IMG/VR virus record: IMGVR_UViG_3300050132_000248
Location: 32,001-96,000 of that record
DNA from: a virus
Reading direction: 5' to 3' (one strand)
DNA length: 64,000 bases
Both the position numbers and the translations under genes were made by a program. Of this stretch, positions 17,047 to 43,200 are shown one piece after another. The stretch's first letter is position 1. Every line of letters starts with the position of its first letter. The notes beneath the pieces were generated by a model. It was given only the letters and a program-made list of their open reading frames with translations. It did no database searches and had not been told where the DNA came from.

Positions 17047-19067
17047 TGGAAATAAAAACTACCGAGTTCTTTAGAAATATGAAATCTCTTCCTCCTGAGG
17101 GATCTGATGAATTCAAACAATTAGTTGATTGGGAAATACAAAAGATAACAGGAGGAATTACCATCAATGGAGTGTTTATTTCCGGGTGGTTATATTGGCA
17201 CATTAATCATTGGTGGATAAGAGTGGATGATTTGGATGAATACAAGAACATCATACGAAAGCCACAACTAGCTGAACTACGTGATAATGAATGGATAAGA
17301 GCTGAATATCTTGAGAGGTGCAAAGCTGAGAAGAAAGGATATATGGAAGTGGGAGCAAGGCAGACAGGAAAAAGTGAGATGGAAGCCTCTTATTTTGGAA
17401 TGAATAGTATAGTGTTTGAAAATACTCAAAATCTAATTGTCTGTGGAAATGATGATGACTTATCTCTCTTAAAGGATAAGGTAGACTTTGGTCTCAAGAG
17501 ATTGTGGAATGGAATATCAATTCCTCGTCTTGATAAAACATGGAGACTTAATCAAATTCGTCTTGGTTATAAAGACACAGCTGGAGAGGATCATGTATGG
17601 AGCTACATTATTATTCGTAATGCTCAGGAAGGACGTAAAACAGAAGCAGGAGCAGGAACTACAGCCAAGACAGTAATATTTGACGAGGTGGGTAAATATT
17701 TATTTGCAAGTTCATTTGCAGCAGTTGAACCAGCTATAAAGAGTCAATTTGGTTGGAGAACAGTTCCTATTCTTGTTGCTACAGGAGGATCATTTGAGAA
17801 TGGAAGAGATGCTGAAAACTTTTATTACAATCCTGATTCTAATAACTTTCTGAGTGTTGAGAATATTGAGAAACATCAAAAGACAACTATCTTTCTCTCT
17901 GGACTTTATAGACTTGATTGTAAGGAGAAGATGCCTCTTGGTGAATGGTTAAGATCAAGGGGAATACAAATTGAAGATATAAATGAACTAAATAAAATTA
18001 CAATAGCTGTATCTAATAAAGAGAAAGCAAATGCACTTATTGAGGATGAACGTGAGAAAGCAAAACATAATCCAGACAGGACAATATTCCTTAAAAAGAA
18101 AATGTATTATCCTCTTAGTGAGGATGAATGTTTCTTAAGAGAGACACAGAATATATTTGATATTGAAGCAGCTAAGAGACAGAAGTTTAGATTGATAGAG
18201 CAAGGAAGAACAGGAACACCTGTAATATTGTTTCATGATGGAGAAAAAATTAAGCATGAATTTAGTGATAAACAAGCAATTACAAACTTTCCGTTAAGAC
18301 CAAATGATTCAAAAGATGCTCCTGTAATCATATATGAGTTTCCAATAGAAAATCCTCCATATGGATTGTATGTTGCTGGTGTTGACCCATATAGGCAAGG
18401 ACAAGCAGCATATAGTTCTTCTCTTGGATCTATTTATATATACAAGAGGATGCATTCTATTAATGATGAGAAGTTTCAGAATATGTTTGTGGCTTCTTAT
18501 TGTGCAAGACCTGATAAAAAAGAAACATGGGAAGAGCAGGCAAGACTGTTAATTAAATACTATAATGCCAGAACATTATGTGAGAATGATGACATCTCTT
18601 TTATAGAATATATGAAAGCAAAAGGAGATGCTCGCTTTTTGGAAAAACAACCAGAGTGGCTGAAAGAAATAGTTCCTAATAGTACAGTACATCGTGATTA
18701 TGGTGTACACAGAAGTGCACAGAAGATAATAGACTTTCTTCATAATGGATTTAAGGCATATATGGAGGAAGTAGTTTATAGTGAAAAGGACGATAAAGGA
18801 GTTATAATAAAAGAAGTGTATGGAGTTTCTACAATATTTGATCCTGTTCTTCTTGAAGAGGTGATACAATATAATGATGATGGAAATTTTGATAGAATAA
18901 TTGCAGCAGAACTTGCTGTAGCTCAAGCAGTGAAGATGGATCCAATAATAGGAAGAGTGGGAGGAAGTGGTGATCCGAGAATTAACTCAATGAAAAGAAA
19001 TGTATTAAATCCTCTGTTTCTTCCAGCAAGAGTGATGAAGGGTAAACAAAGAAAACTATTTACTTAA
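17046..19067 (+). CDS. terL: terminase large subunit (673 aa)
   Basis: Walker A-like GARQTGKS, Walker B VIFDEVG, coupling motif ATGG, nuclease VAGVDPY and DRIIA; upstream of portal. Confidence 0.92.
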   Translation: MEIKTTEFFRNMKSLPPEGSDEFKQLVDWEIQKITGGITINGVFISGWLYWHINHWWIRVDDLDEYKNIIRKPQLAELRDNEWIRAEYLERCKAEKKGYMEVGARQTGKSEMEASYFGMNSIVFENTQNLIVCGNDDDLSLLKDKVDFGLKRLWNGISIPRLDKTWRLNQIRLGYKDTAGEDHVWSYIIIRNAQEGRKTEAGAGTTAKTVIFDEVGKYLFASSFAAVEPAIKSQFGWRTVPILVATGGSFENGRDAENFYYNPDSNNFLSVENIEKHQKTTIFLSGLYRLDCKEKMPLGEWLRSRGIQIEDINELNKITIAVSNKEKANALIEDEREKAKHNPDRTIFLKKKMYYPLSEDECFLRETQNIFDIEAAKRQKFRLIEQGRTGTPVILFHDGEKIKHEFSDKQAITNFPLRPNDSKDAPVIIYEFPIENPPYGLYVAGVDPYRQGQAAYSSSLGSIYIYKRMHSINDEKFQNMFVASYCARPDKKETWEEQARLLIKYYNARTLCENDDISFIEYMKAKGDARFLEKQPEWLKEIVPNSTVHRDYGVHRSAQKIIDFLHNGFKAYMEEVVYSEKDDKGVIIKEVYGVSTIFDPVLLEEVIQYNDDGNFDRIIAAELAVAQAVKMDPIIGRVGGSGDPRINSMKRNVLNPLFLPARVMKGKQRKLFT

Positions 19068-23055: not shown

Positions 23056-24609
23056 ATGGCTATTCAAACAGTTCCCGGGTTAACGGGTTTTGTCTACTCC
23101 CGTGTGGCTTCAATGGACAAACGTGCAGTGGGTAAATTAACAGACGCAAATCACTTGGAATCATTTCACAGTACAGAGCCTGCGGACTATGATAAAAAAA
23201 TCATTAGTCTATATACCCAGAGCTCTTTGTATAGTAATGACTTCCTTGACATGATCAACAAAAGTACTCCCTATTACATCGACAACAATTCTGATGCATG
23301 GAAATGGGATGTACAGGTACCTTACAAATTTCCAAAAATCATCGACATTCCTGCAGCTACATTGAACTTATCAAAGCCGGGGATTGATGGTCAGGAATTT
23401 CAAATTGTTCTAGATACTAATGAGTTCTCCAAGAATGCAATTGTATCTGTGGGTTCTCGTCAGTATGGTCCTCGTTGGTATGTTACCAAAGATCCTATGC
23501 CTTACAATGTTGGATATCTTTACAACTTTACACTTGTAAGTGATAATCCTATAATTGATTACGTCAGTAGTACATTCCTTCAGGTAGGTGTTGAACTTGA
23601 ACTCATTGATGGTGTAATAGGTGAATTTGATCAGGATCTCTTAGGACTTCCTAGGTTGGGTGAAAAAATCACAATGTTTGAATCTCTTGGTTCAGCATAT
23701 GGTTTTGAACACAAAATTACACAATGGGCTGATGAGAAGATGATGAGGGATGCTTCTGGTAAAGCTTTAGACATTCTTGTATATGCTCCTCAGCGTAGGA
23801 ATCAACTTCCTCTTACAAGAAATGATATTAAATGGGAACCCTTTATTGAGTTCTGGATGCGTAAATCAATGCTTGAATTAAAGGTGAAGCGTATGATTTG
23901 GAGTAAGCCAGGAACTGTAAAAACAGGGGGTACCAAACAAGAATTAAAACGTGTATCTGCTGGTGTATACCATAGAATGCGTAACAATGGAAACCTTGTT
24001 CAATACAACAGGGGAGAATTCTCTGCTAATCTAATTCGTTCTGTCTTTGGTGATTTGTTCTATAGAAGGGTCGATGTAAAAGACCGTCATGTGAAAATGT
24101 ATACCAATGAATCAGGATTTGATGTTTTCCAACAGGCTCTTAAGAATGATGCTCTCAATTCTGGATTAACTTTCATGGCAGATTCTGGTAACAGATATTT
24201 GCAGGGTGAAGGTCAGCACATCACTTATAACTTTGCATTTGATGCAATGGTTACAAGGGAAACTGGTAGAGTGGAACTTATTCACTTAAAAGAACTTGAC
24301 CTGCCACAGAGCAATCTTGAATTTGGTCAGAATAAAAAATCTACACCTGTATTCATGGTGTTTGATGTCTCTCCAATGAGTGATGGATCAATGGTAAACA
24401 ATATTCGTGAGGTAAGGATGCAAGGTGCTCCTTCGATGACATGGGGATATATTGATGGTACTGCTCATCACTTAGGCTTTGCAAAGAGTCAGGGTATGAG
24501 CTCTGCAAATAAATTCCCGGGATATGAACTCTGGATGAAAGACCGTTGTGATGTATTTATTGAAGATCTATCTCGTACAGTGTTGATTGAAGAAATTCCA
24601 CAACTCTGA
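23056..24609 (+). CDS. major capsid protein (517 aa), crAss-like HK97 fold
   Basis: Position, size, optimised codon usage, strong terminator immediately downstream. Confidence 0.8.
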   Translation: MAIQTVPGLTGFVYSRVASMDKRAVGKLTDANHLESFHSTEPADYDKKIISLYTQSSLYSNDFLDMINKSTPYYIDNNSDAWKWDVQVPYKFPKIIDIPAATLNLSKPGIDGQEFQIVLDTNEFSKNAIVSVGSRQYGPRWYVTKDPMPYNVGYLYNFTLVSDNPIIDYVSSTFLQVGVELELIDGVIGEFDQDLLGLPRLGEKITMFESLGSAYGFEHKITQWADEKMMRDASGKALDILVYAPQRRNQLPLTRNDIKWEPFIEFWMRKSMLELKVKRMIWSKPGTVKTGGTKQELKRVSAGVYHRMRNNGNLVQYNRGEFSANLIRSVFGDLFYRRVDVKDRHVKMYTNESGFDVFQQALKNDALNSGLTFMADSGNRYLQGEGQHITYNFAFDAMVTRETGRVELIHLKELDLPQSNLEFGQNKKSTPVFMVFDVSPMSDGSMVNNIREVRMQGAPSMTWGYIDGTAHHLGFAKSQGMSSANKFPGYELWMKDRCDVFIEDLSRTVLIEEIPQL

Positions 24610-24684: not shown

Positions 24685-25653
24685 ATGGGAAAAATAGGAA
24701 AGATTTCTACTATTAAGAAGGACTATTCAGTTAGTGGATTAGAAACAATGCAAGGAGGATTATCAAAACATGGACTCACAAGAATTCCGGGTACAGGTGT
24801 TTTTAAATATCCTTATAAGGAAATGGATGGAAAGTATAGAACAGGATTAGACAAAGATGCTTCCTACATTAAAAGGATAAGTGATCCTACAGAACAAGAT
24901 ATTGAACGAAAGAGAGTGGAGGATTTAAAGCAGAAATTAGAGAGTGCTCTTGGGGATGTTAAACTTGGTCCTCGTTCAACTTTCTGGAATTATGCACTTT
25001 CTACATCAACTGACGATACTCTTCATGTTCAACCTATGAAGTTAATAGATGGAGATAACTATTTTGACTTAAATATTCCTAGTCAGGAACTTGCTTTTTC
25101 TTGGTTAAGAGTGCATCCTACAATTGCAAGTTCTTATGGAGCTTGGGAAAGAGGAGACTATCCTGCTGAGACACAGTTTTATGTTGTTGATGATGACATT
25201 GAAAATTTGGTAGTATTTAAAAAGAAGGTGTTAATCAATAAGGCAATCTCAAAGTTTGACAGTATGACTCCTGATAAGAAGAAGAAGGTAGCCAGACTTT
25301 TAGGACTTCCTGTTACTGATAGTACAACAGAAGAATCTGTCTATAATCAGGTGGATAATGTTCTTAAACAAACTGAATTCAAATCTGGAAAATATCAAGG
25401 ATTATCAACAGTTGAGGTATTCAACAGATTTGCAGATATGAAAGAAAACCTACTCCATATAAAAGATGTAATTAAACAAGCCGTTCAATTCTCTATATAT
25501 AGGGTGAAACCTAATGGCAAAATATATGAAGGTGAATTTGAAGTGGCTACAGATGAAGATGAACTTCTAAAATTTCTTGCAGATGATGATCATCAGGAGG
25601 ATTTGATGACATTAGAAGGTAAACTTAAAATGAAGAAAATTGCTTCCGTATGA
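24685..25653 (+). CDS. hypothetical protein of the head module (322 aa)
   Basis: ORF track; synteny with crAss-like head modules (inference). Confidence 0.75.
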   Translation: MGKIGKISTIKKDYSVSGLETMQGGLSKHGLTRIPGTGVFKYPYKEMDGKYRTGLDKDASYIKRISDPTEQDIERKRVEDLKQKLESALGDVKLGPRSTFWNYALSTSTDDTLHVQPMKLIDGDNYFDLNIPSQELAFSWLRVHPTIASSYGAWERGDYPAETQFYVVDDDIENLVVFKKKVLINKAISKFDSMTPDKKKKVARLLGLPVTDSTTEESVYNQVDNVLKQTEFKSGKYQGLSTVEVFNRFADMKENLLHIKDVIKQAVQFSIYRVKPNGKIYEGEFEVATDEDELLKFLADDDHQEDLMTLEGKLKMKKIASV

Positions 25654-26381
25654 TACCTGTAGATAGTTTATTGTATAAAATAGATCAGAAACTAAATAAG
25701 CTATCGACAAACGATCACCAGCGTATTCAATTGGAAGATAAGATATTAGCCTTAAATGAGGCTCAATTAAAACTAATTAAGGAAAAAGTTGATGGTCCTC
25801 CCACTCCTTCAGGAGCAGGAATGGATGCAACAAGAAAGAGATATGAAGATCTTCAGAAACTCATAGAGTATTGGGAAGATCATCCTCTTGATCTAAAACT
25901 CACGAACAAAGAATTAAATAAGTGGACTGCTTCTTTGTCAACTATAAGTCCTGCATATATGCTTTATGTTGATGCATATGTTCTTGCTGATAAAGGAAAA
26001 TGCAAAGACAGGAAAATATGGATAAACAGAGACTTATTGGCTCATGGAGATATTCAGTTTGTATTAAATAATGTTCATTACAAACCATCATTTGAATATC
26101 AGGAGACATGTAGTTATGTAGCTTCAGATCAGATTGACATCTTTACAGATGGTACATTTACACCTACAAAACTATTTCTATCTTATTTACGTTATCCCCT
26201 TTATATAGATAAGGAGGGATATGTAAAATTAAATGGAAAAGATTCTGTCACTCAGGATTGTGAATTAAAGAATTACTTAGAAGATGAACTCGTTGATTTA
26301 GCTGTACAAGATCTTGCTGGCTATACAGAAAATGCAGGTGCAATGAGTACAGCACAAAGTAGAATACAAAAAAATGAATAA
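25650..26381 (+). CDS. putative head-tail ring/adaptor protein (243 aa)
   Basis: Helical N-terminus (ILALNEAQ) and C-terminal ELVDLAV helix as in crAss-like ring proteins; position. Confidence 0.55.
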   Translation: MIPVDSLLYKIDQKLNKLSTNDHQRIQLEDKILALNEAQLKLIKEKVDGPPTPSGAGMDATRKRYEDLQKLIEYWEDHPLDLKLTNKELNKWTASLSTISPAYMLYVDAYVLADKGKCKDRKIWINRDLLAHGDIQFVLNNVHYKPSFEYQETCSYVASDQIDIFTDGTFTPTKLFLSYLRYPLYIDKEGYVKLNGKDSVTQDCELKNYLEDELVDLAVQDLAGYTENAGAMSTAQSRIQKNE

Positions 26382-28225: not shown

Positions 28226-28363
28226 ATGAAGTGTATAGGATGCCACAAATCAGTTTCATGCAGTTGCCAATTAGTAGATGGCTTATGCTTACAATGTAGA
28301 AAACTTAAGAAAGGAATAATCAATGCTGCACTCACGACTTACAAATTGTTCAGGAGCTACTGA
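28226..28363 (+). CDS. small Cys-rich protein (45 aa, MKCIGCHKSVSCSCQLVDGLCLQC...)
   Basis: Read manually; starts 1 nt after the previous stop; six Cys. Confidence 0.6.
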   Translation: MKCIGCHKSVSCSCQLVDGLCLQCRKLKKGIINAALTTYKLFRSY

Positions 28364-28919
28364 CATATCTATATTATTAAATGATATAGATTGCAAGTTG
28401 GTAAAACTTGGGAATGCATTATATGGGAATGCAGTCTATATGATGAATAATGATATTTCAGCAGTTGACATAATTGATTTATTAACATACAAAAGAATTC
28501 TTACCTTTAAACAGGTAAATCCTAATTATGCTTCAGTTGGAAGTTCATGGGGAGCAGAAATGATTGGTGATGTTATTCAATGGAACCAAACCAATCTTAT
28601 TTATAGAACACCTTACATCTTCTGGTGGAACAGAATAATCAAAGATGCTATTTCAACAGATACAATATTTCCTGATCTTATTCCACAAAAGACAGTTATC
28701 ACCACCATTAGTGTTGATAATTTAACTACTAATGGATTTCAACTTGTCATTCAGTTATCAGACACTACTGAGTTACTTAATGAATATATAAATCCATCTG
28801 GATTTTTAACATTAACACTTAACACACCAGTTAATTCATTGAGTGGAATTAATATCACATCTCCTTCATGGAATGGTGCAGAAATAAATCTTTCACTAAC
28901 TATTGAAAATCCATTTTAA
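28323..28919 (+). CDS. hypothetical tail-module protein (198 aa)
   Basis: ORF track; stop abuts ATG 28920. Confidence 0.7.
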   Translation: MLHSRLTNCSGATDISILLNDIDCKLVKLGNALYGNAVYMMNNDISAVDIIDLLTYKRILTFKQVNPNYASVGSSWGAEMIGDVIQWNQTNLIYRTPYIFWWNRIIKDAISTDTIFPDLIPQKTVITTISVDNLTTNGFQLVIQLSDTTELLNEYINPSGFLTLTLNTPVNSLSGINITSPSWNGAEINLSLTIENPF

Positions 28920-31900
28920 ATGAGAAAGATTTTAATATTTATATTGCTTTTATGGACAGGATTTCTTGTTGCTCAGAATCCTTTTAAAACTTCTAAGCTA
29001 ACTACTCCACTTATTTTTATACCTGATAATATAACTGCTCCTTCTCCTTCAACAGATTTTATATATCATATAGGGAGTGGTCTTTACTGGGGTAATCAAC
29101 TTCTTAATTTTGATACAACAGGAGTTGCAAAGAGAGGATGGGTAACAGCTACTTTTGAACCTAAGTTGGGAAATCCTCTTGTGAATGGATGTATATTATC
29201 TTCTACAACAGGAGGGTTAAGATCATGGATTCCTAAAAGTGGTATAATAGACACTACAATTTTAACAACCCTCTGGCATTTCAATCATTATGCTACATGG
29301 ACAGACAATGGCAATAATAAGCAAACCAGCAAGAGGGATACTGTACAAGTAGAATTTCTCAAACTTCCTAATGATGGACTTTCTGCAATAGACTTTGATA
29401 ATTACGATAGCACAACTATTTACAGTGATCGAAGTGGAAATTTGGTTTTATCAACCGATATGTACAATGGAAATTATTTTAATTTATCCAGACCAGCACC
29501 AGGTTATTCTGGATTCAGGATAGCAGCTCAAAATAAAATGAGCCCGATTACCGAAGAAATAAGTGGCAATTCAAATTTCGATAACCCATTTATAGATTTG
29601 TCTATTGTTTCAAAGGGTGAAAATACTTCTGATTTAAGATTTGATTCAACCGGAATGTGTTTTTACTTTTCAACACCCGGAATACATAGAATGAATTTAA
29701 TGAAAGACACGTTACCTTGTGATACCATATTTTCAAAACACTTAAAACTTGAAGATTTGTCAGGTTCAGGAACTTCATTGGGATTGGATTCTCACAATAA
29801 CGTAATAAAGACAAGTGTTGGTGATTATGATTCCATCTGGACTGAAGATTTAACATTAGGTCACCATTGGTTATATTTAAGACGTTTTAATGATAGTGTG
29901 GGAATAGGACTATCGCAACCAACTGCTAAATTAGACGTAAACGGAGAAATTAAAGCAACTGTAAATAGTGGGGATGCCATAAATGCAACTTCAATAACAG
30001 GAATTGGAGTTTATGCTAATGCTCCTGACAATGTAGGTGTATGGGGTGCGTCTTATAATGGTTCTGGGGTATATGGTTCTTCTACAAATAGCTATGGGGT
30101 ATACGGAAATAGTTATGCAAGCGATGGAGTTAAAGGCATTTCAATAACAGGATTTGCGGGTGAATTTATTGGTCTTACAAAGATGGATAGTGTTATTATT
30201 ACCCACGTCAAACTTCGCACAGGATTAGATACTATAATGGTAATAAATCACGATAGCTTGTATAAGCAACTATTACCCACCATCCCTGCTGGACAGATTC
30301 AATCTGATTGGAACCAGACAAATAATGTTTATCTCGACTTCATTAAGAATAAACCCAACCTTTCAATTTATCGTACATTGGGTAATCATGATTCACTTTC
30401 ACAGTTAAAGGAAAAAAGTTATAATGATCTGACTGATAAACCATCTTTCGTTAGCGGAACTGGCCCCCAAAATTATTTACCAGTGTGGTTATCAGGAGGA
30501 ATAAGTTTAGGTACGAGTATAATAAGTACAACGGGAACAGATATAACTTCTATTTCTACTTATAAAGGATTACATTCTGATGGACATAATATTTTTATGG
30601 GTGGTGGTGGTCAAAATTCCATAGGACAAGTGGGGTCAACTTATCTTGGAAGTAATAATACTGTTTATGGGAATCAATCTTTTATGAATAATACTAATGG
30701 TTATATGAATGTCGCCATTGGTAATACATCGTTATATAGTAATACAACGGGGATTGGTAATGTCGCCATTGGCGGTCAATCTTTGTTTAACAATAGTACA
30801 GGAAATTATAATATTGCCATTGGCTATGGTTCAATGATGCCTTCTAATGGTGACAATAATACTGCTATTGGGAAATCAACACTTATGACTAATACCACTG
30901 GAAGTCATAATACAGCAATAGGGTTTTTTTCTATGGAGGGAAACGAAACAGGATTTTATAATACCGCAATTGGAGAAAATAGTTTGGGAGAAGTATTATA
31001 TGGTTGGGGTAATACAGGATTGGGTAGTTATTCTTTATGGTTAAATTTTAATGGAAGTGACAATATTGGAATAGGAGATAGTGCTGGATTTAATGAAACA
31101 AGTTCATTTAATCTTTATATTGGTAAAGGAGATTCTACGACAGCTCCTATTTATGGAAAAATGTCTAAAAACAGATACAGAATAAACGGCAATTTACTTG
31201 TAAAAACCATTCCAATAGCAGGTTCACGGCCCAATTATGTTTTATCTCCAGACGCAAATAATAATATACAAAAATATTCATTTCCTTCTTATTCAGCCGG
31301 ATATGGATTAGGACTATCAGGAACTACCTTCTATAATTCACGTTATTGGGGAACACAGGATAGTCTTAAAACATCATTATCGGGATTGGTATTGGCAACA
31401 GCAGGTAAGCTGACAGCAATTACTAATAATTCTTCAAATTGGGATAGCGGATATGCTTACCGATTGACAGGAGCAACAGGTTCAGCACCCTTGACATTGG
31501 GATTAAGTGGTAATGCTTTAACAGGTTCGATAGATACCTCAACAGCAAAGACAGGTTTGGCAAACTTATATCAACTTGGATTGAAGGCTAATAAAGCCAC
31601 TACGATAACAATAAACGGAACAGGGTATGATCTATCCACCAATAGGAGTTGGTCTATTGCAGGTAGTGATACTTCGTTACTCAAGCACAAAAATGATACC
31701 GTGAATACCAAAACCGGATTCACTACTTTATACCAAAACGGTTTGAAGGCAAACAAATCAACCATCTTAACTATTAATGGTACGGCATACGATATTTCGG
31801 CTAATAGAAGCTGGACAATTGCCACTACCGACACCTCGCTTTTGAAGCACAAAAACGACAGTATAAATGCAAAGACAGGGTTCACTACCTTGTACCAAAA

Positions 31901-33134
31901 TAGTCTAAAGCAGAATAAGATCACCACTTCAGCCGACACTTCTAAGTTTGCATGGCATGACTTAACTATGCACAAAATTTATTACAGTAATATTCAGGCT
32001 ACTCCATTTACTTGGAGTTCGGATTATGGAGCTTGGCAATCTTCCAATCCATTTATATTCACTAATCCGGTTACTCTTTTCAACGGGTTGACAGTGCATG
32101 GAACACAGACGTGGGATGCTACCTATGCTGCCTCTTCGTTTGATTCAATAATAGGATTGACAAGCGGCACTGTTGGTAGGATGAAATGGTACTTACCTTT
32201 TTATGTTAAAGACAGTAACAAACAAGGTAATCCTATCACACTGAAATATGGTTATACTCATTATCAGCCTATTGGGAGTTATGGTACGGGATCAGTAACC
32301 AACATCACAATGGGTTACGGGTTATCTTCAACTCAATCACCGCTGACTACAACAGGAACGATGAAGGTTGATAGTACGGTGTTGGTTTCAACAGTAAGAT
32401 TAGGGCATCTTACAAGTTACCCGACTTTAAATCAATCCACAACAGGTAGTGCCGGAAGTGTTACTAATGCTCTTTCTAATGGATACGGAATTAACTCATT
32501 AACATATAATGGGAGTTCTGCATTATCAATAGTAGTAGATACTTCGCATATTTGGAGTTCTGTCAGGGCGGGACATCTGACGGCTTATCCTACATTGAAT
32601 CAGAATACCACAGGCACGGCTAACGTGGCTGGTGGAACCGTTGGGGCAGTGCCCTATCAAAGTGCGGCGAATACAACAGGAGTAGTAGCAGCAACAGCAA
32701 CAGCAGGATTACCTTTAATATCTGGCGCAAATGCCATACCAACTTGGGCAACCTCACCCCCACTTTATAAATCTACTATCAGGGAGTTGTTTCCGCCTGT
32801 ATTTGTTGATACCTCTGCATTAATTAGTACCGGAAAAGTTTTAATCGGTTATTCAGGAAATATAACGATTGACACTTTAATTTATGTTCTTAACAGACGT
32901 GCAGGAACACCATCAATAACACCTACTATTAAATATGGAACAGATTGGACGGCATCAGGCACATCAGTAGTGACAGCACCGGGGGCAGTAACTTCTTATT
33001 CAACACCGACAAAAGTATCAGGAGGTACATTAAACAATATCACTATTTCAGCAGGTAATCTTATCTGGATGACTTGGACAGAAACAGTAGCACCTAAAGA
33101 ATTATATGTAATTATTCTGGGACATTATAATTAA
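28920..33134 (+). CDS. tail-fibre/adhesin-like protein with Sec signal peptide (1404 aa)
   Basis: MRKILIFILLLWTGFLVA|Q signal; GVYG and NTAIG beta-roll repeats; QSDWNQ and YNDLTDKP fibre motifs; TINGTxYDLSxNRSW repeats. Confidence 0.75.
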   Translation: MRKILIFILLLWTGFLVAQNPFKTSKLTTPLIFIPDNITAPSPSTDFIYHIGSGLYWGNQLLNFDTTGVAKRGWVTATFEPKLGNPLVNGCILSSTTGGLRSWIPKSGIIDTTILTTLWHFNHYATWTDNGNNKQTSKRDTVQVEFLKLPNDGLSAIDFDNYDSTTIYSDRSGNLVLSTDMYNGNYFNLSRPAPGYSGFRIAAQNKMSPITEEISGNSNFDNPFIDLSIVSKGENTSDLRFDSTGMCFYFSTPGIHRMNLMKDTLPCDTIFSKHLKLEDLSGSGTSLGLDSHNNVIKTSVGDYDSIWTEDLTLGHHWLYLRRFNDSVGIGLSQPTAKLDVNGEIKATVNSGDAINATSITGIGVYANAPDNVGVWGASYNGSGVYGSSTNSYGVYGNSYASDGVKGISITGFAGEFIGLTKMDSVIITHVKLRTGLDTIMVINHDSLYKQLLPTIPAGQIQSDWNQTNNVYLDFIKNKPNLSIYRTLGNHDSLSQLKEKSYNDLTDKPSFVSGTGPQNYLPVWLSGGISLGTSIISTTGTDITSISTYKGLHSDGHNIFMGGGGQNSIGQVGSTYLGSNNTVYGNQSFMNNTNGYMNVAIGNTSLYSNTTGIGNVAIGGQSLFNNSTGNYNIAIGYGSMMPSNGDNNTAIGKSTLMTNTTGSHNTAIGFFSMEGNETGFYNTAIGENSLGEVLYGWGNTGLGSYSLWLNFNGSDNIGIGDSAGFNETSSFNLYIGKGDSTTAPIYGKMSKNRYRINGNLLVKTIPIAGSRPNYVLSPDANNNIQKYSFPSYSAGYGLGLSGTTFYNSRYWGTQDSLKTSLSGLVLATAGKLTAITNNSSNWDSGYAYRLTGATGSAPLTLGLSGNALTGSIDTSTAKTGLANLYQLGLKANKATTITINGTGYDLSTNRSWSIAGSDTSLLKHKNDTVNTKTGFTTLYQNGLKANKSTILTINGTAYDISANRSWTIATTDTSLLKHKNDSINAKTGFTTLYQNSLKQNKITTSADTSKFAWHDLTMHKIYYSNIQATPFTWSSDYGAWQSSNPFIFTNPVTLFNGLTVHGTQTWDATYAASSFDSIIGLTSGTVGRMKWYLPFYVKDSNKQGNPITLKYGYTHYQPIGSYGTGSVTNITMGYGLSSTQSPLTTTGTMKVDSTVLVSTVRLGHLTSYPTLNQSTTGSAGSVTNALSNGYGINSLTYNGSSALSIVVDTSHIWSSVRAGHLTAYPTLNQNTTGTANVAGGTVGAVPYQSAANTTGVVAATATAGLPLISGANAIPTWATSPPLYKSTIRELFPPVFVDTSALISTGKVLIGYSGNITIDTLIYVLNRRAGTPSITPTIKYGTDWTASGTSVVTAPGAVTSYSTPTKVSGGTLNNITISAGNLIWMTWTETVAPKELYVIILGHYN
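31547..31920 (+). repeat. about 2.3 copies of a 162-bp (54-aa) degenerate tandem repeat
   Basis: KTGxxxLYQxxLKxNK..TINGTxYDxSxNRSWxIA..DTSLLKHKND repeated. Confidence 0.85.
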
Positions 33135-33146
33135 AAACGAGCAATT

Positions 33147-33641
33147 ATGAAAACATTATTTGTAATTTATTTATTGTTTACAACAGGATTCATTAGTTTG
33201 ATTCTTTATCACGATTATAAGGATCATCATTATACAGGAGAGTGTAAAGGAGTGTTATCTGAAAAGGTTGAAAATTCATACTCGGTTACATCTATTGGAA
33301 GTGATGGATTAGATTGTTCTAAATGTAAAATACTAAAAAATAATGGTCATGCCTACATTGGCAGTCAGGCTATTAGTATTGATAAGAAAAAATGCAAACT
33401 ATTAAAAAACTTTAATCCACCCGAGGAACTTTATGGTATAACTATTCCTAAAAACGTTAAACTGATTAAGGTAAATTTCGATTGGTCAAAAGTTACAATA
33501 TCAAAATCAGATACATTTGAGTTACCAAAAAAGGTTACGCCTTATCTTTTTAATCATGGGTATCCTTATGCAACCGATAAATATGGAAGACCATTAGACA
33601 GTAATATTGAAGTTGATTCTATAATTTTTATAGATAAATAA
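33147..33641 (+). CDS. membrane-anchored hypothetical protein (164 aa)
   Basis: N-terminal hydrophobic MKTLFVIYLLFTTGFISLILY. Confidence 0.7.
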   Translation: MKTLFVIYLLFTTGFISLILYHDYKDHHYTGECKGVLSEKVENSYSVTSIGSDGLDCSKCKILKNNGHAYIGSQAISIDKKKCKLLKNFNPPEELYGITIPKNVKLIKVNFDWSKVTISKSDTFELPKKVTPYLFNHGYPYATDKYGRPLDSNIEVDSIIFIDK

Positions 33642-33679
33642 AAGTAAAATGAATTTCACACACACACTCACACACGCTT

Positions 33680-35113
33680 ATGAAAAGGGTAACTATTTTA
33701 TATAGGGTAATAGCTGTATGCGTTGCCCTTTTCTTTCTTCCCTTGCTCTCAATAGGGCAGCACTATCAGGCAGGTTCAGGTTCTACTCCTTCCACCGGCT
33801 GGACGCCTCCTGCTGCATGGGTTGATAGTACAGGTGCTATCACCACTTCTGTGATGGGTGCTGATGGAACTCTTGCTGCATCTACTATTAAAATCCTTGT
33901 CGATACACGTATGGCTAACCGTACCATTGCTTTCACTGTGACGGCTGCTAATGGCTATACGGTGAATTGGGGAAGGAAAGAAAGCGGGGTTAATTATGCT
34001 AACGGTGCTTTAGCAGAAAGAACTTATGATAGTACAAAATGTCAACGATATTGTGTTATCACTATAACCAAAACAGGTGCAGGGGCAATAACAGCCTTTA
34101 CAGTATCTCGTAGTACAACCTATGTAGCAACTCAAACTCAATATCCTCAATATCTATGGATAGCCGCTAATTATTCAGGTGCTGCACCTGTGATGTATAT
34201 TTCAAATTGTTATACTTGTAATTTAAAGGCAGCTTATTTAATAACTGTAACCTCGTTGGGGTCACAATGCTTTTACGATTGCTACGCCTTGCAGTCGGTG
34301 ACAATACCCAGTAGTGTAACCTCGTTGGGGACATATTGCTTTTCCTATTGCTACGCCTTGCAGTCGGTGACAATTCCGTCAGGCGTAACCTCGTTGGGGA
34401 CATATTGCTTTTCCTATTGCTACTCTTTACAGTCGGTGACAATACCCAGTAGTGTAACCTCGTTGGGGCCACAATGCTTTTACAGTTGCTACGCCTTGCA
34501 GTCGGTGACAATACCCAGTAGTGTAACCTCATTGGGGACAAATTGCTTTGCCAATTGCACCGCCTTGCAGTCGATAACTATCCTCAGTTCTGTAACCTCG
34601 ATTGGGGCAAATTGCTTTCAATATTGCTACGCCTTGCAGTCGATAACTATCCCATCAGGAACCACAAGCATACCAGCATCTATGTTTACAGGTGATGTAT
34701 CACTTAATAACGTAACTTATACGGGAACAGAAACAAGTGCAGAAGATCACGGAACAAATATGTTTTATCAATGCGAACAGCTTGACACCTTAAAAATGGC
34801 AGGGTTGAAAACTCAAAGATTTGCATTTTACGGACAAGCTGGTCAATTGAATAAATTAGGTTCAGTAGGCAACCTTCATAATGACAGCATACCTGTAAGG
34901 ATAAACTGGGCCGCTTCTACTTTTGCAAGTGGAACCGCACCGCAACTAGACCTATCTTATTGCTCGATGACCGAATTACAAATGAGGGCAATATTAAACT
35001 GTCTACCTACCGTTGTAGGAAAGCAAGTAAAATTATCGGGTAATCCCGGATATGCTTCATTAACAACGGCAGATAAAGCTAAAGCAGTAGCAAATGGATG
35101 GACAATAAATTAA
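33680..35113 (+). CDS. BspA-type (LRR_5/TpLRR) leucine-rich repeat protein with Sec signal peptide (477 aa)
   Basis: Six 23-aa repeats VTSLGxxCFxxCxALQSVTIPSS; signal ..LFFLPLLSIG|Q. Confidence 0.88.
   Translation: MKRVTILYRVIAVCVALFFLPLLSIGQHYQAGSGSTPSTGWTPPAAWVDSTGAITTSVMGADGTLAASTIKILVDTRMANRTIAFTVTAANGYTVNWGRKESGVNYANGALAERTYDSTKCQRYCVITITKTGAGAITAFTVSRSTTYVATQTQYPQYLWIAANYSGAAPVMYISNCYTCNLKAAYLITVTSLGSQCFYDCYALQSVTIPSSVTSLGTYCFSYCYALQSVTIPSGVTSLGTYCFSYCYSLQSVTIPSSVTSLGPQCFYSCYALQSVTIPSSVTSLGTNCFANCTALQSITILSSVTSIGANCFQYCYALQSITIPSGTTSIPASMFTGDVSLNNVTYTGTETSAEDHGTNMFYQCEQLDTLKMAGLKTQRFAFYGQAGQLNKLGSVGNLHNDSIPVRINWAASTFASGTAPQLDLSYCSMTELQMRAILNCLPTVVGKQVKLSGNPGYASLTTADKAKAVANGWTIN
34247..34660 (+). 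repeat. six 69-bp tandem repeats encoding the LRRs
   Basis: Units start GTAACCTC at 34247 and every 69 nt to 34592. Confidence 0.95.
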
Positions 35114-35230
35114 CCAACTAAAGAGAACACTGAATAAAGGATAACTCATTAAAATAACTGATATGGCACTACTCGAAACAGCCCAGCCTTAGATAAGATT
35201 TAAAAGTCAAACAAAATAAATTTATAAATT

Positions 35231-36352
35231 ATGACAACCTGCACAAATTGTTTTAGTGGTTGTGTGGAGACCACATCAGATAAATGTGTGAAATACACTG
35301 GGAACGATATTACGTTTCTGAATATTCATACAGGAGATTCCCTTGAATCAATTGAGGAACATATCACGGATTATATAGCTACTGTATTTAGTGGGATAGG
35401 TATAATGCCTGTAATTGAATCAACATTGATTTGTACTACTGTGAAGCAATTTCTTCCTTGTGATGATTGTGGTGCTCCTACATTAGTAGATATTCTCACT
35501 GCTATCATAGAAGCAATATGCTCACTTGAAACTCAGATTGTCGCTAATACAGCATCAATTAATACTATAGAGGCAACTTATGATGTAAGCTGTTTCAGTG
35601 GTACACCAATTGTAGGAACTCATGCTGTTCTTCAAGCAGCTATTACAACTCTCTGTGCAGCAATAGGAAATATAACAACATTGCAAAATCTTTTTGCAAC
35701 GTGTATTACAACCAGTAATATTAATACCTATATCCAGAATTATATAAATGCTCAGTCAAATGTCAATATGTATACCAAAATGGTACCATATGTCATTTAT
35801 CCTTTTTATCCAAGCACAACAATTATGTCAGGAGCATTTGACATCAATGGAATAGGATTGGGAACATGGCAGAATATATATCTCTGTAATGGATATGGTG
35901 GCTTCACTCCTGACTTAAGAGGAAGAAGTTTAATTGGAACAACAGATATGGGTGGTGGACCATTTAATCCTAATGTGGATCCCGGGAGTGGTAATCCAAC
36001 TTACAATCTAGGTACTCTGAATGGACAGAATTCTGTAACTCTTTCTTCTCCACAAATACCAGCACATACACATACAACTAATGTTGTAGTAACTGATCCT
36101 ACGGGTCTTGCAGAAATTCCATTTGGAGGTGGTGAGATTTTTACAACCATGAGTGGTGGTCAGTTCGCAATTACTGAAATTAATGGTGTAGGTAGTAGTG
36201 TAGCACCTGAGCAGAAATCAACTACTGTTCCAGTAACTATGACAGATCTTTCTGTAAGTGTTTCAATTAATCCAAATTCACCAGCAGGAAGTGCTCATAC
36301 AAATGTTCATCCTGTACTTGGTGTATATTATATTATGTTCATACCTTCTTAA
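35231..36352 (+). CDS. tail-collar domain protein (373 aa)
   Basis: LCNG..TPDLRGRSLIGT..G..SVTLSSPQIPAHTH..HTNVHPVLGVYYIM is the phage tail-collar pattern. Confidence 0.8.
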   Translation: MTTCTNCFSGCVETTSDKCVKYTGNDITFLNIHTGDSLESIEEHITDYIATVFSGIGIMPVIESTLICTTVKQFLPCDDCGAPTLVDILTAIIEAICSLETQIVANTASINTIEATYDVSCFSGTPIVGTHAVLQAAITTLCAAIGNITTLQNLFATCITTSNINTYIQNYINAQSNVNMYTKMVPYVIYPFYPSTTIMSGAFDINGIGLGTWQNIYLCNGYGGFTPDLRGRSLIGTTDMGGGPFNPNVDPGSGNPTYNLGTLNGQNSVTLSSPQIPAHTHTTNVVVTDPTGLAEIPFGGGEIFTTMSGGQFAITEINGVGSSVAPEQKSTTVPVTMTDLSVSVSINPNSPAGSAHTNVHPVLGVYYIMFIPS

Positions 36353-38028: not shown

Positions 38029-38766
38029 ATGGCAATCCTTCGTAAGCTCGTAAGTGATGTCCGCAGTCTTCATAAATTGCTTTCTACAGATAGTATAGCA
38101 ACGGATAGGATGATAGCTAGTGAATTGAAAGTAAATGCACTTTTATTACTCAAGAGGGAAACAAACCTAAGAAGGTTGTGGGCTACAGACACAATTTTTA
38201 CCACTATACCCTGTCTTCAGATGATTGAAGTACCTATCTCAGAATGTTGTGATTATGCTGATCCCTGCAATATAGCAAGAAGTAAATTACATCTTCCACG
38301 GATATGTGAAGGAAACTATCAATATCTCATACAGGGAGTCTATTCAATAAATGCCATGAGAGGCAAAGCCACAAAACTCAAAGAGGTTACAATCAATAGA
38401 TATATCAACCTCCTGAAACTTCCAATTGTAAAGAAAGAGAATTATTATTGGATAGCAAATGATTATCTATATGTAACCAATCCAATGGTGCAAAAGGTAA
38501 GAATGGCTGCTTTGTTTGAAGAAGATGTTCCTAATGAATTAATGTATCCAGAATGTGAATGTGGAGAAGCTCCTCCTTTAGATGAATTATGCAAGAATCC
38601 TTTGGATAAGGAATCTTTCATTCCCGGGTATTTGGAAAAACAAGTTCTTCAACTGACATCACAAACATTATTAAGTACATACTTTGGAGTAAGGATGGAA
38701 ACAGAACCTTTGAGTGGTGTAGATGAACAGGTAGCTGCACCTCCACAAAATCAAAGAGGGAGATAA
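38029..38766 (+). CDS. putative tail ring/adaptor protein (245 aa)
   Basis: ORF track; position in the crAss-like ring-HU-ring-muzzle order. Confidence 0.55.
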   Translation: MAILRKLVSDVRSLHKLLSTDSIATDRMIASELKVNALLLLKRETNLRRLWATDTIFTTIPCLQMIEVPISECCDYADPCNIARSKLHLPRICEGNYQYLIQGVYSINAMRGKATKLKEVTINRYINLLKLPIVKKENYYWIANDYLYVTNPMVQKVRMAALFEEDVPNELMYPECECGEAPPLDELCKNPLDKESFIPGYLEKQVLQLTSQTLLSTYFGVRMETEPLSGVDEQVAAPPQNQRGR

Positions 38767-39273: not shown

Positions 39274-40236
39274 ATGTATTATTATCGTTATAATTTCGTA
39301 TCCCCAGAATCCTCATTTGCTACAATTAAGGAGGAATTCAAGTCATATTTTGATACCTCTGCGATAGACGACCTAATGTTTCCTACATGGTTAAATAAGG
39401 CTCTAAACAAATTGGGTAAGTCTTCATATATAATCAGTGAAGAGATTTTGTACATTAAAGATTTTGAAGACAGACTTCCTGATAATTTTTATGCTGTAAG
39501 AGAAGCATGGGCATGTACAGAGATGGTAGGATATCCTTATCAGACTGCTAATTCATTTTATTCTCAGGCAGCCTCTGCAACAACTATTCAGGTGTCTCCA
39601 ATGGTAGTGGATGGACAACCTTGCAATGATCCTGTATGTCCAAACGATGCATGTGACCCATGTATGCCAAATCTGGTACAGGCTATCTATAAAACTAATA
39701 ATGAGTTCACAAGAACATTTCATAAGGAATATTTACTACAACCCGGGAATATATCTGTTAGACAACATTGTGATGTAGAATATACATCTGCTTGGGATAG
39801 AGTTTCAAAGATACATCAGAGTACACCTTTCTCTTCTTCTTATGATTCTTTTGATATCAGAGATAATAAATTTGTCACTAATTTCAGAGATGGGATTGTT
39901 CATCTTGTATTTTATGCCACTGAATATGATAATTTGGGTAGTCAGATGATTCCTGATAATTTTCGTATAAAGGAATATGTAGAAGCATATATTAAGATGA
40001 AGTTAATTGAAATGCTTGTAAATCAAGTAACTGATGAAACTTTTAATCAACTTCAACAGAAACTCGTTTATTATACAAAGCTACATGACGAAGCTCTTAT
40101 TCTAGCGTTCTCAGAAATAAAATCACAAGATATTTGGACAAAGCAGAGAAGAATAAAAAAGGATTTAAATCGTTTTAACATGTATGAACTCCCGGGAAGT
40201 ATACCTAATAGACATTCTTGGAAACGTAATGTTTAA
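39274..40236 (+). CDS. putative tail ring protein (320 aa)
   Basis: ORF track; C-terminal IPDN..KEYVEAYIKMK helix; precedes the muzzle-like gene. Confidence 0.55.
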   Translation: MYYYRYNFVSPESSFATIKEEFKSYFDTSAIDDLMFPTWLNKALNKLGKSSYIISEEILYIKDFEDRLPDNFYAVREAWACTEMVGYPYQTANSFYSQAASATTIQVSPMVVDGQPCNDPVCPNDACDPCMPNLVQAIYKTNNEFTRTFHKEYLLQPGNISVRQHCDVEYTSAWDRVSKIHQSTPFSSSYDSFDIRDNKFVTNFRDGIVHLVFYATEYDNLGSQMIPDNFRIKEYVEAYIKMKLIEMLVNQVTDETFNQLQQKLVYYTKLHDEALILAFSEIKSQDIWTKQRRIKKDLNRFNMYELPGSIPNRHSWKRNV

Positions 40237-40241
40237 TTGAA

Positions 40242-43200
40242 ATGACTGAGGAAGAAGGAAATATAAAGCAGGAATTTAACTTTGCTCAAACAGGACTTAA
40301 TCTTGATTTGACCCCATCACAAGTCAAAGAAGGAATGACAACTTTTTGCCTTAATGGTTCTGTTGAAAATTTTGATGCAAACGGAATATCTTATCAAAAT
40401 GAACAGGGCAATGAATTTTGTATTTCTTTTCCTGAAGGATTTGTTTTAATTGGAAAGCATTTCATTAATGAGCAAAGCAGACATATTTTCTTTATTACTA
40501 ATCCAAATGAACCTGCTTATCCAGATCAGATTGGTTATATGGATAATAATGATGGCTTATACCATATAATGATACAGGGTGCTTTTGGTTTTAACATTCA
40601 TTATCCTATTCATAAATGTGTACATAAAATAAATAATTGCTCCACAGAAATATACTGGACAGATGGCCTTAACTCAAGACGCTATCTCAATTTTGATAAA
40701 ATCCCATATGTATTAATTGGAGGAACACCTGCGTGTAATCCCATCTATGGAACTGATATTGATGTTAATCAATTAAAGCTTCAGCCTAATTTTAATATTC
40801 CTGAGCTTTCTGTAAGTGATGTAACTAATGTAGGAACTCTTGTTGAGGGTACATATCAGTTTGCTATTCAGTATTGTGACATCTCTGGCAATGAATACAC
40901 CTCTTATTATTCTGTTACAAATCCCACACCTATTACTGATACATCTATAGTTTCAGTTAATTTTAATAATCAAATAGGAAAGTCAATTGTCCTTGATATA
41001 ACTAATCTTGATCTAAGTGGACAGTTTCAGTATTTCAATTTAGCTGTTATAAAAACTATTAATGCTATTTCTTCTGTAGAATTAGTAGGAACTTATTTCA
41101 TAGAGGGAGATAGTAAACAAATAATCTATACAGGACAGTCTTCCAGTAATACAACTACAAATATTCGACTTTCAATAAATGATATATTTGAGAAGTTTCC
41201 CTATTATGATATTGCTAATGATCTAACAGCTGTTCAGGATGTTCTTGTATGGGACGATCTTATATCTATTGATAGGATTAATTATCAAGGGATTGCGAAT
41301 GGAATTACTCTGCAATGGCAAACTTGGAGAATTCCTGCAGATGAGAATTATTCCAATGAATTGAATGCAACTAATTATCGTTCTTATTTAAGAGATGAAG
41401 TGTATCCATTTGAAATAGTTTTCTTATTGAAGAATGGAAAACAAACAGATGGATTTCATATCCCGGGAAGAGCAAAGGATTTTAATGAATTACATCAACC
41501 TGATGTTCCCAACACTGATGCTGATTTCATAGGAACTCCTGATTACTATGATAGTGAAATAGGTTATTCTCCTTTTTGGAAAATTTACAATACAGCAAGT
41601 GTTGTAGAGAATGATCCTGAATATACAACTGATCCTGAGTATAAAGGACCTTATCAAACAGGAGAATTTGCATATTGGGAATCTACTGAACAATATCCCT
41701 GTAATAAAGATGTGTGGGGAGAGCTTGCAGGACAAAATATAAGACATCATAAATTTCCTGATATTCTTGTTTCTCCAATTTTTGAATCACAGATATTCAC
41801 TGGAATGAGTGGAATGGTAATGAGTAATGAAGCCATTTTTCCAATAGGTATTAAAATTGATGTAGATCAGATAAAGACATTGATTAATATATCCTCTCTT
41901 ACAACTGAACAGAAAGGTGATATTGTTGGATTTAAAATAGTTAGAGGAGACAGATCAACAAACAAATCTGTTATAGCAAAAGGCATATTAAGGAATGTAG
42001 GTATTTATACAAGAGAAAATGATATAGGAGAAAACAATTCATTCTATTTTCCAAATTATCCTTATAATGATTTGAATGAAGATGTGTTTATTAATAGAAC
42101 TAATAATGCATATACAGATGAATGTGCTTCCTATGATATTACAATAGATAATATTCCTCCGACAAGCCCAATAAACCCTCCTGATCCTATCACAGGAAAA
42201 CCTTATGCTGAGGTAAGTTATGTTGATTGCAGTACTAATAACAATACAACTATAAAATACTTTACTATAGGATCAACTGATCCTATAACAGGAAATCCTT
42301 ATAGAATTTGTTCTATTGGCAGACCTTCATTTGATCAGGGAACTGGAACTGTATGTACATCTTCTTATGAGGTGTGGAATGTACATTCAGGAGGATGGCT
42401 TAGCAGAGGATATAGATATGGTTGGTATGACAGATGCAAGGGTTGGAGTGAAGATTGGATGCCGGGAAATGAATGGGGAGGAACTGCGGTGAGTGTTCAG
42501 GTGGTTCCTAATACAGGAGGGGTAACACAGGTAGAAGGACCAGGAAGTATTCATACATCTTATGTAGAAACTATAACCCCAGAAGGTATTTCATGTTCAG
42601 AGGCACAAGGTCTTCCTCCAATTAGAAGCAATCCTTCTCTTGCATATAGACAAATATTTAACTCTCCTGAAACATCTTTCAGTAAGCCTTTCTTAGGAAA
42701 CATTCTTAAACTTGAGAATGTTATATTTGGAGCTGGAATAGCTCATTTTGCAGAAGTGAAAAACAATGCAAAATACAGACTGATTACAGAGGAAGCTCAG
42801 CATGATGCTTTAACTGCTTCTGAAATAATGGCAGCTATGGCTAGTCCATTTGATCCTCAGGTAATGTTTAGTGCCTATCAGACTTATCTTCAAATATATC
42901 TTAATGGTATCACAAGAAAGAATTTTGCTTATTCATATAACTCAATAGCAAATTATGACTATTGGGCAGATATTCCAAATGGTCAGGGAGTAAAACAACG
43001 CAACCTTGATATTAAAACATATTTGGTACCAAATGTGGTATCTACTACTGATGACAATCCTTTAAATAATTGGGAGAGGGAAACCTCTATTTATTTAAGA
43101 ACGGTAGGAGCATTAGATGATAGTGTTCCTCCATTGCCATTTCCAGACCAGAGTCCTGATATACCTATAGCCAATCCTCCTCTAATAGAAAAATCAAGAG

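Follow-up and report, generated by a model that had tools for sequence, protein, structure and literature searches.

A mobile gene block in a crAss-like phage encodes a tail-fibre-type protein with a predicted signal peptide and an excess of Bacteroidota O-glycosylation motifs

We analysed a 64,000-nucleotide (nt) stretch of viral DNA, hereafter the window, which comprises bases 32001-96000 of the 117,331-bp IMG/VR record IMGVR_UViG_3300050132_000248 (rated complete by CheckV). Sequence matches to the terminase, portal, major capsid protein (MCP), ring proteins, and muzzle all identify the whole element as a crAss-like phage. Its tail region encodes a 1404-amino-acid (aa) protein, P0001 (window 28920-33134, + strand), that resembles tail fibres, begins with an apparent signal peptide, and is rich in the O-glycosylation motif (sequon) of the Bacteroidota. 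These features, the link between sequon excess and export, and the mobility and accessory status of the gene come from the sequence and from comparison with relatives. We propose that this fibre is part of a mobile cassette of Sec-exported proteins, that the host glycosylates it, and that it is attached to the virion at lysis. The model as a whole is tentative, a little short of an even chance, and its parts differ in strength: export of the fibre is very probable; glycosylation is likely, given export; and attachment to the virion could go either way.

The start codon of the fibre (ATG at 28920) abuts the TAA of the upstream open reading frame (ORF), p198, with a gap of 0 nt. The predicted Sec leader spans 18 codons (28920..28973, + strand) and has an MRK n-region, a 15-residue uncharged hydrophobic core, V-A at positions -3/-1, and a predicted signal peptidase I site, LVA|QNP, which would leave Gln at +1. 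All of our leader calls are from our own rule-based scan, not from SignalP. The original prediction, which was made from the sequence alone, had described this signal peptide, and the ORF, the features of the leader, and the leaders of related proteins (see below) agree with it. A true start further downstream would have undone that prediction. The next in-frame ATG is codon 181, and the only other start-type codons within the first 120 codons are TTG9, TTG83, and GTG88; since a later start would remove the conserved N-terminal domain, we place the start at 28920. The N-terminus thus has the appearance of a classical, selected Sec leader with Gln at +1. We found no lipobox, type IX secretion system (T9SS) C-terminal domain, or barrel in the fibre or in five homologues, so by sequence the fibre would be a soluble periplasmic protein. 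NCBIfam (E<=0.1) and Pfam (E<=0.01) likewise gave no T9SS C-terminal or other secretion domain for P0001, for the nearby leucine-rich repeat (LRR) protein P0003, or for five homologues, in keeping with the earlier statement that no T9SS domain or autotransporter barrel is evident.

The sequon D-(S/T)-(A/I/L/V/M/T) occurs 21 times in the fibre, and 5.8 occurrences are expected from its composition (3.6 times chance; binomial p 1e-7). This is a density of 1.5 sequons per 100 aa. Among 20,000 shuffles of the mature fibre, none reached 21 sequons (mean 5.8, maximum 16). Ser in the third position is allowed by the glycoproteomes in a review of this system (PMC12871550); including it adds six DTS sites and gives 27 sites versus 7.5 expected. 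Our recount was identical to the earlier manual count of 21 canonical sequons and six DTS, and the claim that about half of the Asp residues are followed by Ser or Thr was also borne out: 30 of 63 are (48%, versus a Ser+Thr content of 23%; binomial p 2e-5). Only 2 of the 21 sequons come from one internal duplication. Control motifs were at expectation, including E-S/T-h (1 versus 1.7, where h is the hydrophobic position), N-S/T-h (13 versus 11.2), the reversed motif (4 versus 5.8), D-S/T-non-h (9 versus 9.0), and D-A/G-h (4 versus 4.1), as well as D-N/Q-h, G-S/T-h, and K-S/T-h. The excess is specific to the exact three-residue motif.

The sequon excess tracks export, both within this genome and across phages. 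The nine ORFs of the genome with a leader or an N-terminal membrane span contain 34 sequons versus 10.1 expected, while the 100 other ORFs contain 67 versus 90.6 (1.22 versus 0.21 per 100 aa). If the fibre is left out, the exported set still has 13 sequons versus 4.3 expected. Large cytoplasmic virion proteins are at or below chance: the muzzle has 4 versus 8.6, and the first 2966 aa of a giant protein have 5 versus 8.4. In the leftward early arm, two small ORFs with leaders are rich in sequons (window 4743-5390, - strand, leader HS|Q, 3 versus 0.5; and window 11795-12166, - strand, lipoprotein-type leader, 2 versus 0.3), so the export-linked enrichment is not limited to the fibre block.

In other phages, the leader-bearing protein P0010 has 56 sequons versus 13.8 expected (p 2e-20); the giant proteins of its phage are 57% and 30% identical to those of the present genome. 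Other leader-bearing fibres are enriched as well (L001, 23 versus 5.8; P0064, 16 versus 3.5; P0141, 10 versus 3.1; P0171, 7 versus 2.3; P0020 and P0044, 10 versus 5.2), and their leaderless neighbours are not. The original prediction had asked for a survey of fibres with and without signal peptides, and the outcome favours it. Among 166 distant relatives with fibre motifs, about a third of which carry leaders and some of which may be bacterial surface proteins, the ratio of observed to expected sequons was 0.79 for the 116 leaderless proteins, 0.99 for those with a leader but no Gln, and 1.47 for those with a leader and Gln. The fibre itself, at 3.6, exceeds this last group. Two phages with fibres in the same kind of slot, and with beta-helix and fibre repeats like those of P0001, differ from it in having neither leaders nor an excess of sequons: crAss001 of Bacteroides (gp22-gp26) and the crAss-like Cellulophaga phage phi17:2 (gp047-054, all leaderless and unenriched). 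These are therefore conventional cytoplasmic fibres. The one leader-bearing late protein of crAss001, gp27, has 4 sequons versus 0.3 expected. The O-glycosylation system modifies only non-cytoplasmic proteins, and sites in exported proteins are nearly fully occupied; engineered sequons are used, and glycosylation works across species (PMC12871550). Phages are mentioned 0 times in that review.

The leader is preserved in relatives of the fibre even where the sequence is not. The fibre body (residues 108-1404; 29239..33134, + strand), which holds most of the 21 sequons, is 99% identical at the nucleotide level to part of L001, a 12.7-kb contig from the Joint Genome Institute (JGI). L001 comes from an unrelated phage. 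The shared segment (window 29239-34414) runs from fibre residue 108 through the next gene, P0002, and into the LRR gene; upstream of it, the two sequences are unrelated. The full fibre ORF of L001 has a different 66-aa N-terminus that also forms a classical leader, which ends in ASA|Q. A relative of the L001 phage, L086, has the same leader and N-terminal module on a shorter, mosaic fibre of 769 aa (a third relative is in L091).

The window's own N-terminal module (residues 19-107 of the fibre; 28974..29238, + strand) is lineage-specific and is homologous to the N-termini of two prophage tail fibres, P0020 and P0171. Its 3' limit is a recombination junction at 29239. Together, the leader and module (residues 1-144) are homologous (33%) to the beginning of P0020, which is 1516 aa long and has the central repeat region as well (29% over ~500 aa). 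Both P0020 and P0171 have a diverged homologous leader that ends in VAA|Q. P0020 lies on a prophage-like contig with bacterial neighbours, although IMG/VR lists the contig as viral. Its gene follows the tape-measure and baseplate-hub genes and precedes a reverse transcriptase of the diversity-generating retroelement (DGR) type; no other large fibre-like gene comes after the baseplate genes of its prophage. A leader-bearing prophage fibre followed by a DGR reverse transcriptase is found at L082:10001-16213 and also in L083-L085 and L092. In a Bacteroidales metagenome-assembled genome (L089), with the same prophage genes as L082, the same first ~90 residues are joined to a 704-aa protein that looks from its sequence like a pectate-lyase-type beta-helix. 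L082 and L089 agree in all 23 leader codons but differ at 14 of the 60 nt upstream, and their proteins diverge past codon 89.

Thus, as far as sequence can tell, one physico-chemical pattern with Gln at +1 is common to three leaders, of which two have unrelated sequences, and because the pattern is kept in diverged or non-homologous N-termini, the leader of the fibre appears to be under selection. In two lineages (L001 versus L086, and L082 versus L089), a fixed N-terminal module is combined with swapped distal parts, which is the pattern typical of true tail fibres. At least six other phage loci have leader-bearing fibre genes, placed at either the fibre or the lysis position. We also observed that in two other crAss-like phages (L093:10001-18854 and L095:2426-13704), the region that follows the auxiliary capsid gene holds a cluster of leader-bearing genes, five or six in number. 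These clusters contain P0141 and P0044 and include a Pel9A-like beta-helix and a BNR-like protein. The L093 region runs on to ring 2, ring 1, and the muzzle, and its structural module also has a glycosyltransferase gene of the GT2+TPR type.

Several searches identify P0001 as fibre-like. It matches the tail spike family phrog_4636 (E 1.7e-17), and with tblastn it matches tail fibres in 75 phage records, over residues ~577-780 only. A beta-helix-type "NTAIG" repeat region (residues ~554-740; 30579..31139, + strand) resembles tail fibres and spikes of many phages. The C-terminal ~120 aa (32769..33131, + strand) form a putative beta-sandwich tip, which is 72% identical in the shorter fibre P0064. 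The gene occupies the fibre slot of the crAss-like tail module, between the auxiliary capsid protein (AuxCP) and ring-3/4 genes on one side and ring 2, ring 1, and the muzzle on the other. For P0001, ESM Atlas pointed (0.90) to Bacteroidota "beta strand repeat" proteins with PTL_trimer. Other searches gave no match: the fibre and P0002 against Pfam (E<=0.01) and NCBIfam (E<=0.1), the fibre against PDB sequences and IMG/VR, the first 332 aa against cultured phages (tblastn), and the window's N-terminal module against metagenomes. In IMG/VR, the sole match to that module was contig L083. AlphaFold2 models of residues 19-330 (pLDDT 31) and 1168-1404 (pLDDT 41) were too poor to interpret, with the latter reaching a pLDDT of 55-70 only in the last ~100 aa. 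A fold search with this low-confidence tip gave a weak hint of jelly rolls like those of carbohydrate-binding modules or lectins (best Z 8.1, within the background range), and no T9SS domain was among the top 50 matches.

The fibre gene was described as part of the tail module, and that holds for its slot and for its matches to fibres but not for the tail module's core, because the gene lies in an insertion that relatives lack. IMG/VR contains at least 599 contigs with a related capsid protein, and we examined the best 80 (90-96% identical). Both flanking genes, p198 and p373, were found in 78 of the 80. The homologues of these genes are separated by 0-43 nt in 76 of the 78 loci and by 158 and 1036 nt in the other two; in the window, they are 6311 nt apart. 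The fibre gene, P0002, and P0003 are a 6.3-kb accessory insertion that is absent from all 78 informative relatives. The inserted segment (approximately 28581..35230, + strand) begins within p198, after its 86 conserved residues, and ends past the LRR gene, so that it includes the C-terminal extension of p198. No piece of the fibre matched anything in the related loci, and their structural regions contained no convincing leader-bearing ORF of at least 100 aa.

The insertion is mobile. In sequencing runs from peat, 29239 is where contigs break off and the L001-type N-terminus takes over, at a depth of 10-20; two of these runs also contain the window-type junction, at a depth of ~3. Since both junction types occur in the same peat runs, the two phages co-occur and swapped the fibre body recently. 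The fibre gene was found in peat metagenomes from at least 12 studies (2018-2025). The successive gaps from p198 through the fibre gene, P0002, and P0003 to p373 are 0, 12, 38, and 117 nt, and promoter- and terminator-like sites at the block showed no excess over chance, which together suggest that the block is read with the late operon. In a peat RNA library, contigs cover the fibre gene, and one bridges the end of the fibre gene, P0002, and the start of the LRR gene, although DNA carry-over could account for these. Parts of the stretch had no cover in the RNA run, and nothing is concluded from those gaps.

P0002 (33147..33641, + strand) is a 164-aa protein with four Cys and one N-terminal hydrophobic span, beside which our scan found no signal cleavage site; this agrees with the earlier description of the gene as membrane-anchored. 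It is 100% identical in L001 and absent beside the L086 fibre, and ESM Atlas returned nothing useful for it. P0003 (33680..35113, + strand) is a BspA-type LRR protein of 477 aa. Its signal peptide (33680-33757) ends in SIG|QHY, with Gln at +1, and it has four sequons versus 1.2 expected, both as originally claimed. It matches Pfam LRR_5 (PF13306; E 9.8e-59, 197 bits versus a cut-off of 27.7) and PDB 4gt6 (E 2e-60). P0003 shares LRR_5 repeats with the BspA-type surface proteins (PDB 4gt6) and differs from them in being phage-encoded, in its unrelated N- and C-terminal parts, and in having no T9SS or choline-binding anchor. Within its repeats (window 34247-34700), stretches of 82-151 nt are missing or substituted in peat contigs, so strains differ in the number and sequence of the repeats. 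We rejected DGR mutagenesis as the source of this variation because the complete 117-kb genome has no reverse transcriptase (no match to RVT_1).

Our proposed mechanism is as follows. The mobile, late-transcribed cassette would send all three of its products through the Sec translocon. Signal peptidase I would cut the fibre and the LRR protein before Gln, and a host glutaminyl cyclase would convert the new N-termini to pyroglutamate. The unfolded fibre would enter the periplasm, where the host's general O-glycosylation system would load its 21-27 D-S/T-hydrophobic sites, and would then fold and trimerise there. The membrane-anchored P0002, which sits where fibre chaperone genes usually lie, may help with assembly. 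Once the holin and endolysin opened the envelope, the glycosylated fibre would meet particles built in the cytoplasm and would dock by its lineage-specific N-terminal module as an extra receptor-binding fibre. Cleavage and glycosylation are our inference, as is the role of P0002, and attachment to the virion is the most inferential step of all. In the earlier interpretation, the steps with good support are export and O-glycosylation by the host; roles as glycan camouflage, decoy, or exclusion factor would be more conjectural alternatives for an exported fibre.

Attachment at lysis would fit the fibre homology of P0001, its slot in the tail module, the combination of fixed N-terminal modules with variable distal parts, and the standing of P0020 as the sole large fibre-like gene of its prophage. 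A further guide is the podovirus phi18:3, which was cultured on a Bacteroidota host (NC_021794.1; gp085-gp087 at L097:2892-8584). Like the fibre, gp085-087 are large late proteins with a leader before Gln (GYS|Q, VSA|Q, and LNA|Q), and in the record they are labelled virion or tail proteins "based on experimental MS/MS proteomics analysis". The finding of leader-bearing proteins in these virions by mass spectrometry (MS) favours attachment at lysis, and by analogy gp085-087 are the only experimental hint that leader-bearing proteins may reach virions. They differ from the proteins of the window in having no sequence similarity to them, in being sequon-poor, and in lying beside lysis genes rather than in the fibre slot. 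We found no comment on their leaders in the literature.

A number of points weigh against attachment. We know of no tailed phage that adds an exported protein to its particle, and virions and periplasmic proteins meet only at lysis. The detection of gp085-087 could reflect co-purifying proteins, and their genes adjoin lysis genes. Together these three proteins have 3 sequons versus 9.6 expected (1 each versus ~3), so the enrichment in the fibre needs more than export into virions to explain it; with leaders but no sequon excess, they also indicate that export and dense glycosylation can be uncoupled. The N-terminal module is common to phages of the podovirus type and of the baseplate type, which is odd for a domain that docks to the virion. 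In L087, a related crAss-like phage, the leader-bearing fibre gene lies not in the fibre slot but after the giant proteins, next to where the present genome has its lysis genes. Finally, absence from the relatives implies that the cassette is dispensable.

A further difficulty concerns the host. The closest named relative of the terminase (40% identity) belongs to a 125-kb phage that was reported on a cyanobacterium, Leptolyngbya boryana. The next relatives are from crAss-like Cellulophaga phages (31%) and from phages of Bacteroides, Flavobacterium, and Azobacteroides; apart from the Leptolyngbya phage, all of the named relatives infect Bacteroidota. Given this odd top match, either the host assignment of the Leptolyngbya phage or the host range of the lineage deserves a look. 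For the present phage, the Crassvirales hallmarks, the adherence to the Q-rule, and the export-linked sequon enrichment suggest a Bacteroidota host, and the homologue of the N-terminal module in a Bacteroidales genome points the same way.

A cell-side role has a real chance of being correct, if a lesser one than even: the fibre would be exported and glycosylated but never enter the virion, and would act with the LRR protein on or from the infected cell. The envelope might display it, or it might leave the cell as a soluble trimer that binds glycans, and it might mask receptors on debris or neighbouring cells, block superinfection, or stick the cell or lysate to particles. The block is accessory and mobile, and each of its three products has an export signal; one of them is the BspA-type LRR protein, and the nearest relatives of that protein with solved structures are surface proteins of bacterial cells. 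The sharing of the N-terminal module by unlike tail types fits an anchor directed at the host better than one directed at the virion, and the leaders on about a third of the distant fibre-motif matches may partly belong to bacterial surface proteins. There are precedents, too. The MAT fibres of Bdellovibrio bacteriovorus are mosaic trimers that resemble phage tail fibres and have a signal peptide, a conserved ~130-aa N-domain, and swapped tips, and they serve as cell-surface adhesins (Caulton et al. 2024, PMC10769870). Their build is the same as that of our fibre, but the likeness is by architecture alone: they are the predator's own cellular surface proteins, not phage-encoded, with no link to the Bacteroidota sequon, and many have an S74 chaperone domain, which Pfam did not find in the fibre. 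The DGR variable proteins adjacent to Bacteroides prophages are periplasmic and pilin-like (bioRxiv 10.1101/2024.11.15.621889). On the other hand, the fibre has no lipobox, T9SS C-terminal domain, or barrel with which to reach or cross the outer membrane, and its gene sits without a gap in a late structural operon. The leader-bearing protein is the only candidate receptor-binding fibre in the L082-type prophage, and by MS the virions of phi18:3 contain leader-bearing proteins.

It is quite unlikely that the N-terminus is not a working export signal, or that the protein starts elsewhere, so that P0001 is a cytoplasmic fibre and its sequon excess a structural quirk of the family. This reading could appeal to the rule-based nature of our leader calls, to the JGI gene caller, which began the L001 copy at a GTG 29 codons downstream, and to phi18:3, where leader-like N-termini occur on sequon-poor virion proteins. 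However, the n/h/c pattern and the Gln at +1 recur in three leaders that are unrelated or diverged; the next ATG lies 180 codons away, and starts at GTG or TTG would remove a conserved domain. Also, the excess is confined to the exact motif and to leader-bearing proteins, including small non-fibre ORFs and crAss001 gp27, and leaderless fibres with the same repeat types are unenriched. That the block is a bacterial adhesin operon picked up by chance, a passenger with no role in the life of the phage, is more improbable still: LRR_5 and leader-bearing fibre-like proteins are common in Bacteroidota genomes and the insertion is recent (99% identity with L001), but its close relatives are found only in phage contigs, its ORFs are intact, it persists in peat across the many studies mentioned above, and leader-bearing fibre genes recur at fibre or lysis positions elsewhere.

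Returning to the exported and glycosylated fibre, the Q-rule (PMC5837995) and the O-glycosylation motif (PMC12871550) were already known. Known Q-rule substrates of Sec and signal peptidase I and known O-glycosylation substrates (PMC12871550; PMC5837995; PMC10653852) share two features with the fibre, Gln at +1 after a leader and numerous D-S/T-hydrophobic sites in regions that are soluble and not cytoplasmic, but they are host proteins and the fibre is phage-encoded. Q-rule proteins have been noted in prophages of Porphyromonas gingivalis, where their genes were described only as of unknown function (Matrishin et al. 2023, PMC10367356). Like the fibre, these and the prophage-adjacent Bacteroides proteins are phage-borne genes adapted to export in Bacteroidota; they differ in not being fibre homologues in a virion operon, and no sequon analysis was reported for them. 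The DGR targets of phages were stated to lack signal peptides (Benler et al., PMC6199706), and P0020, by its predicted leader, appears to be an exception. We found no description of leader-bearing, sequon-rich tail fibres in the literature on crAss-like, Bacteroides, Flavobacterium, or Cellulophaga phages. The earlier suggestion of an undescribed route therefore stands in that we found no paper that describes it, but the route is not unique to this phage, given the other leader-bearing fibre loci.

What would be new is a tail-fibre-type protein that is rerouted through the export and glycosylation pathway of the host. This case adds that such a fibre travels in cassette form between phages that are unrelated but share a habitat, that the leader and N-terminal module stay specific to each phage lineage, and that the sequon excess is motif-exact and export-linked. 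More generally, some tailed phages of the Bacteroidota might build host-recognition parts outside the cytoplasm, as exported, pyroglutamate-capped, and O-glycan-coated proteins that join the particle at lysis; we advance this tentatively, as a possibility clearly short of an even chance.

Tail fibres set host range, and in the textbook account the assembly of tailed phages is wholly cytoplasmic. If our model is correct, then the Caudoviricetes would have a second assembly compartment, and the virion would wear glycans made by the host. Fibres would carry host-type glycans, pyroglutamate caps, and possibly disulfides, which would change expectations for their stability, antigenicity, and production in phage engineering and structural work. 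Phage host range would be linked to the glycosylation locus of the host. It would also account for any poor behaviour in E. coli of recombinant fibres from these phages.

The genes on either side of the block are both on the + strand. Upstream is p198 (28323..28919), a small tail-module protein of 198 aa; its first ~86 aa are conserved in relatives, where the homologues have 87-141 aa (mostly 88 aa), and its last ~110 aa are specific to the present phage. We considered whether this extension is a docking partner that was transferred together with the fibre and rejected the idea, as it is not similar to any ORF of L001, L082, L086, or L087. We also rejected stop-codon read-through from p198 into the fibre, which are in the same frame with one TAA between them, since table 11 gives clean reading frames elsewhere in the genome, the longest of 4609 aa. 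Downstream is p373 (35231..36352), a conserved tail protein that matches a PHROG tail protein and, weakly, the C-terminal domain of T4 Gp10. It has no leader and one sequon versus 1.4 expected, and in relatives it directly follows p198.

Elsewhere in the window, PHROGs matches identify the terminase (17046-19067), portal (19079-21664), and major head protein (23056-24609), and Pfam matches identify crAss ring 2 (38029-38766; CrAss_Ring_2, 6e-14), ring 1 (39274-40236; Ring_1, 1e-11), and the muzzle protein (40242-46058; crAss_MUZ, 2e-42). The assignment of ring-3/4 (25650-26381) is weaker, as its match to CrAss Ring_3_4 (E 4e-4) is below the cut-off. Among cultured phages, we found no close DNA relatives. 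Downstream of the muzzle are the giant proteins, of 4609 and 2402 aa, and then a probable lysis block (L099:981-3861; genome 108980-111863) with an M15 peptidase endolysin. Small ORFs with leaders or membrane spans flank the endolysin, and one of them has 3 sequons versus 0.9 expected. The ORF at L099:6215-7228 (genome 114214-115230) had been labelled a glycosyltransferase, a label that we rejected, as Pfam gave nothing for it at E<=0.001; the two ORFs after it do have poly-Thr tracts. Near-duplicate 81-aa ORFs, rich in Lys, Pro, and Met, lie at both ends of the record (genome 30-275, and L099:8990-9235, which is genome 116989-117234), which suggests either terminally redundant ends or a circularly permuted genome that was assembled with an overlap.

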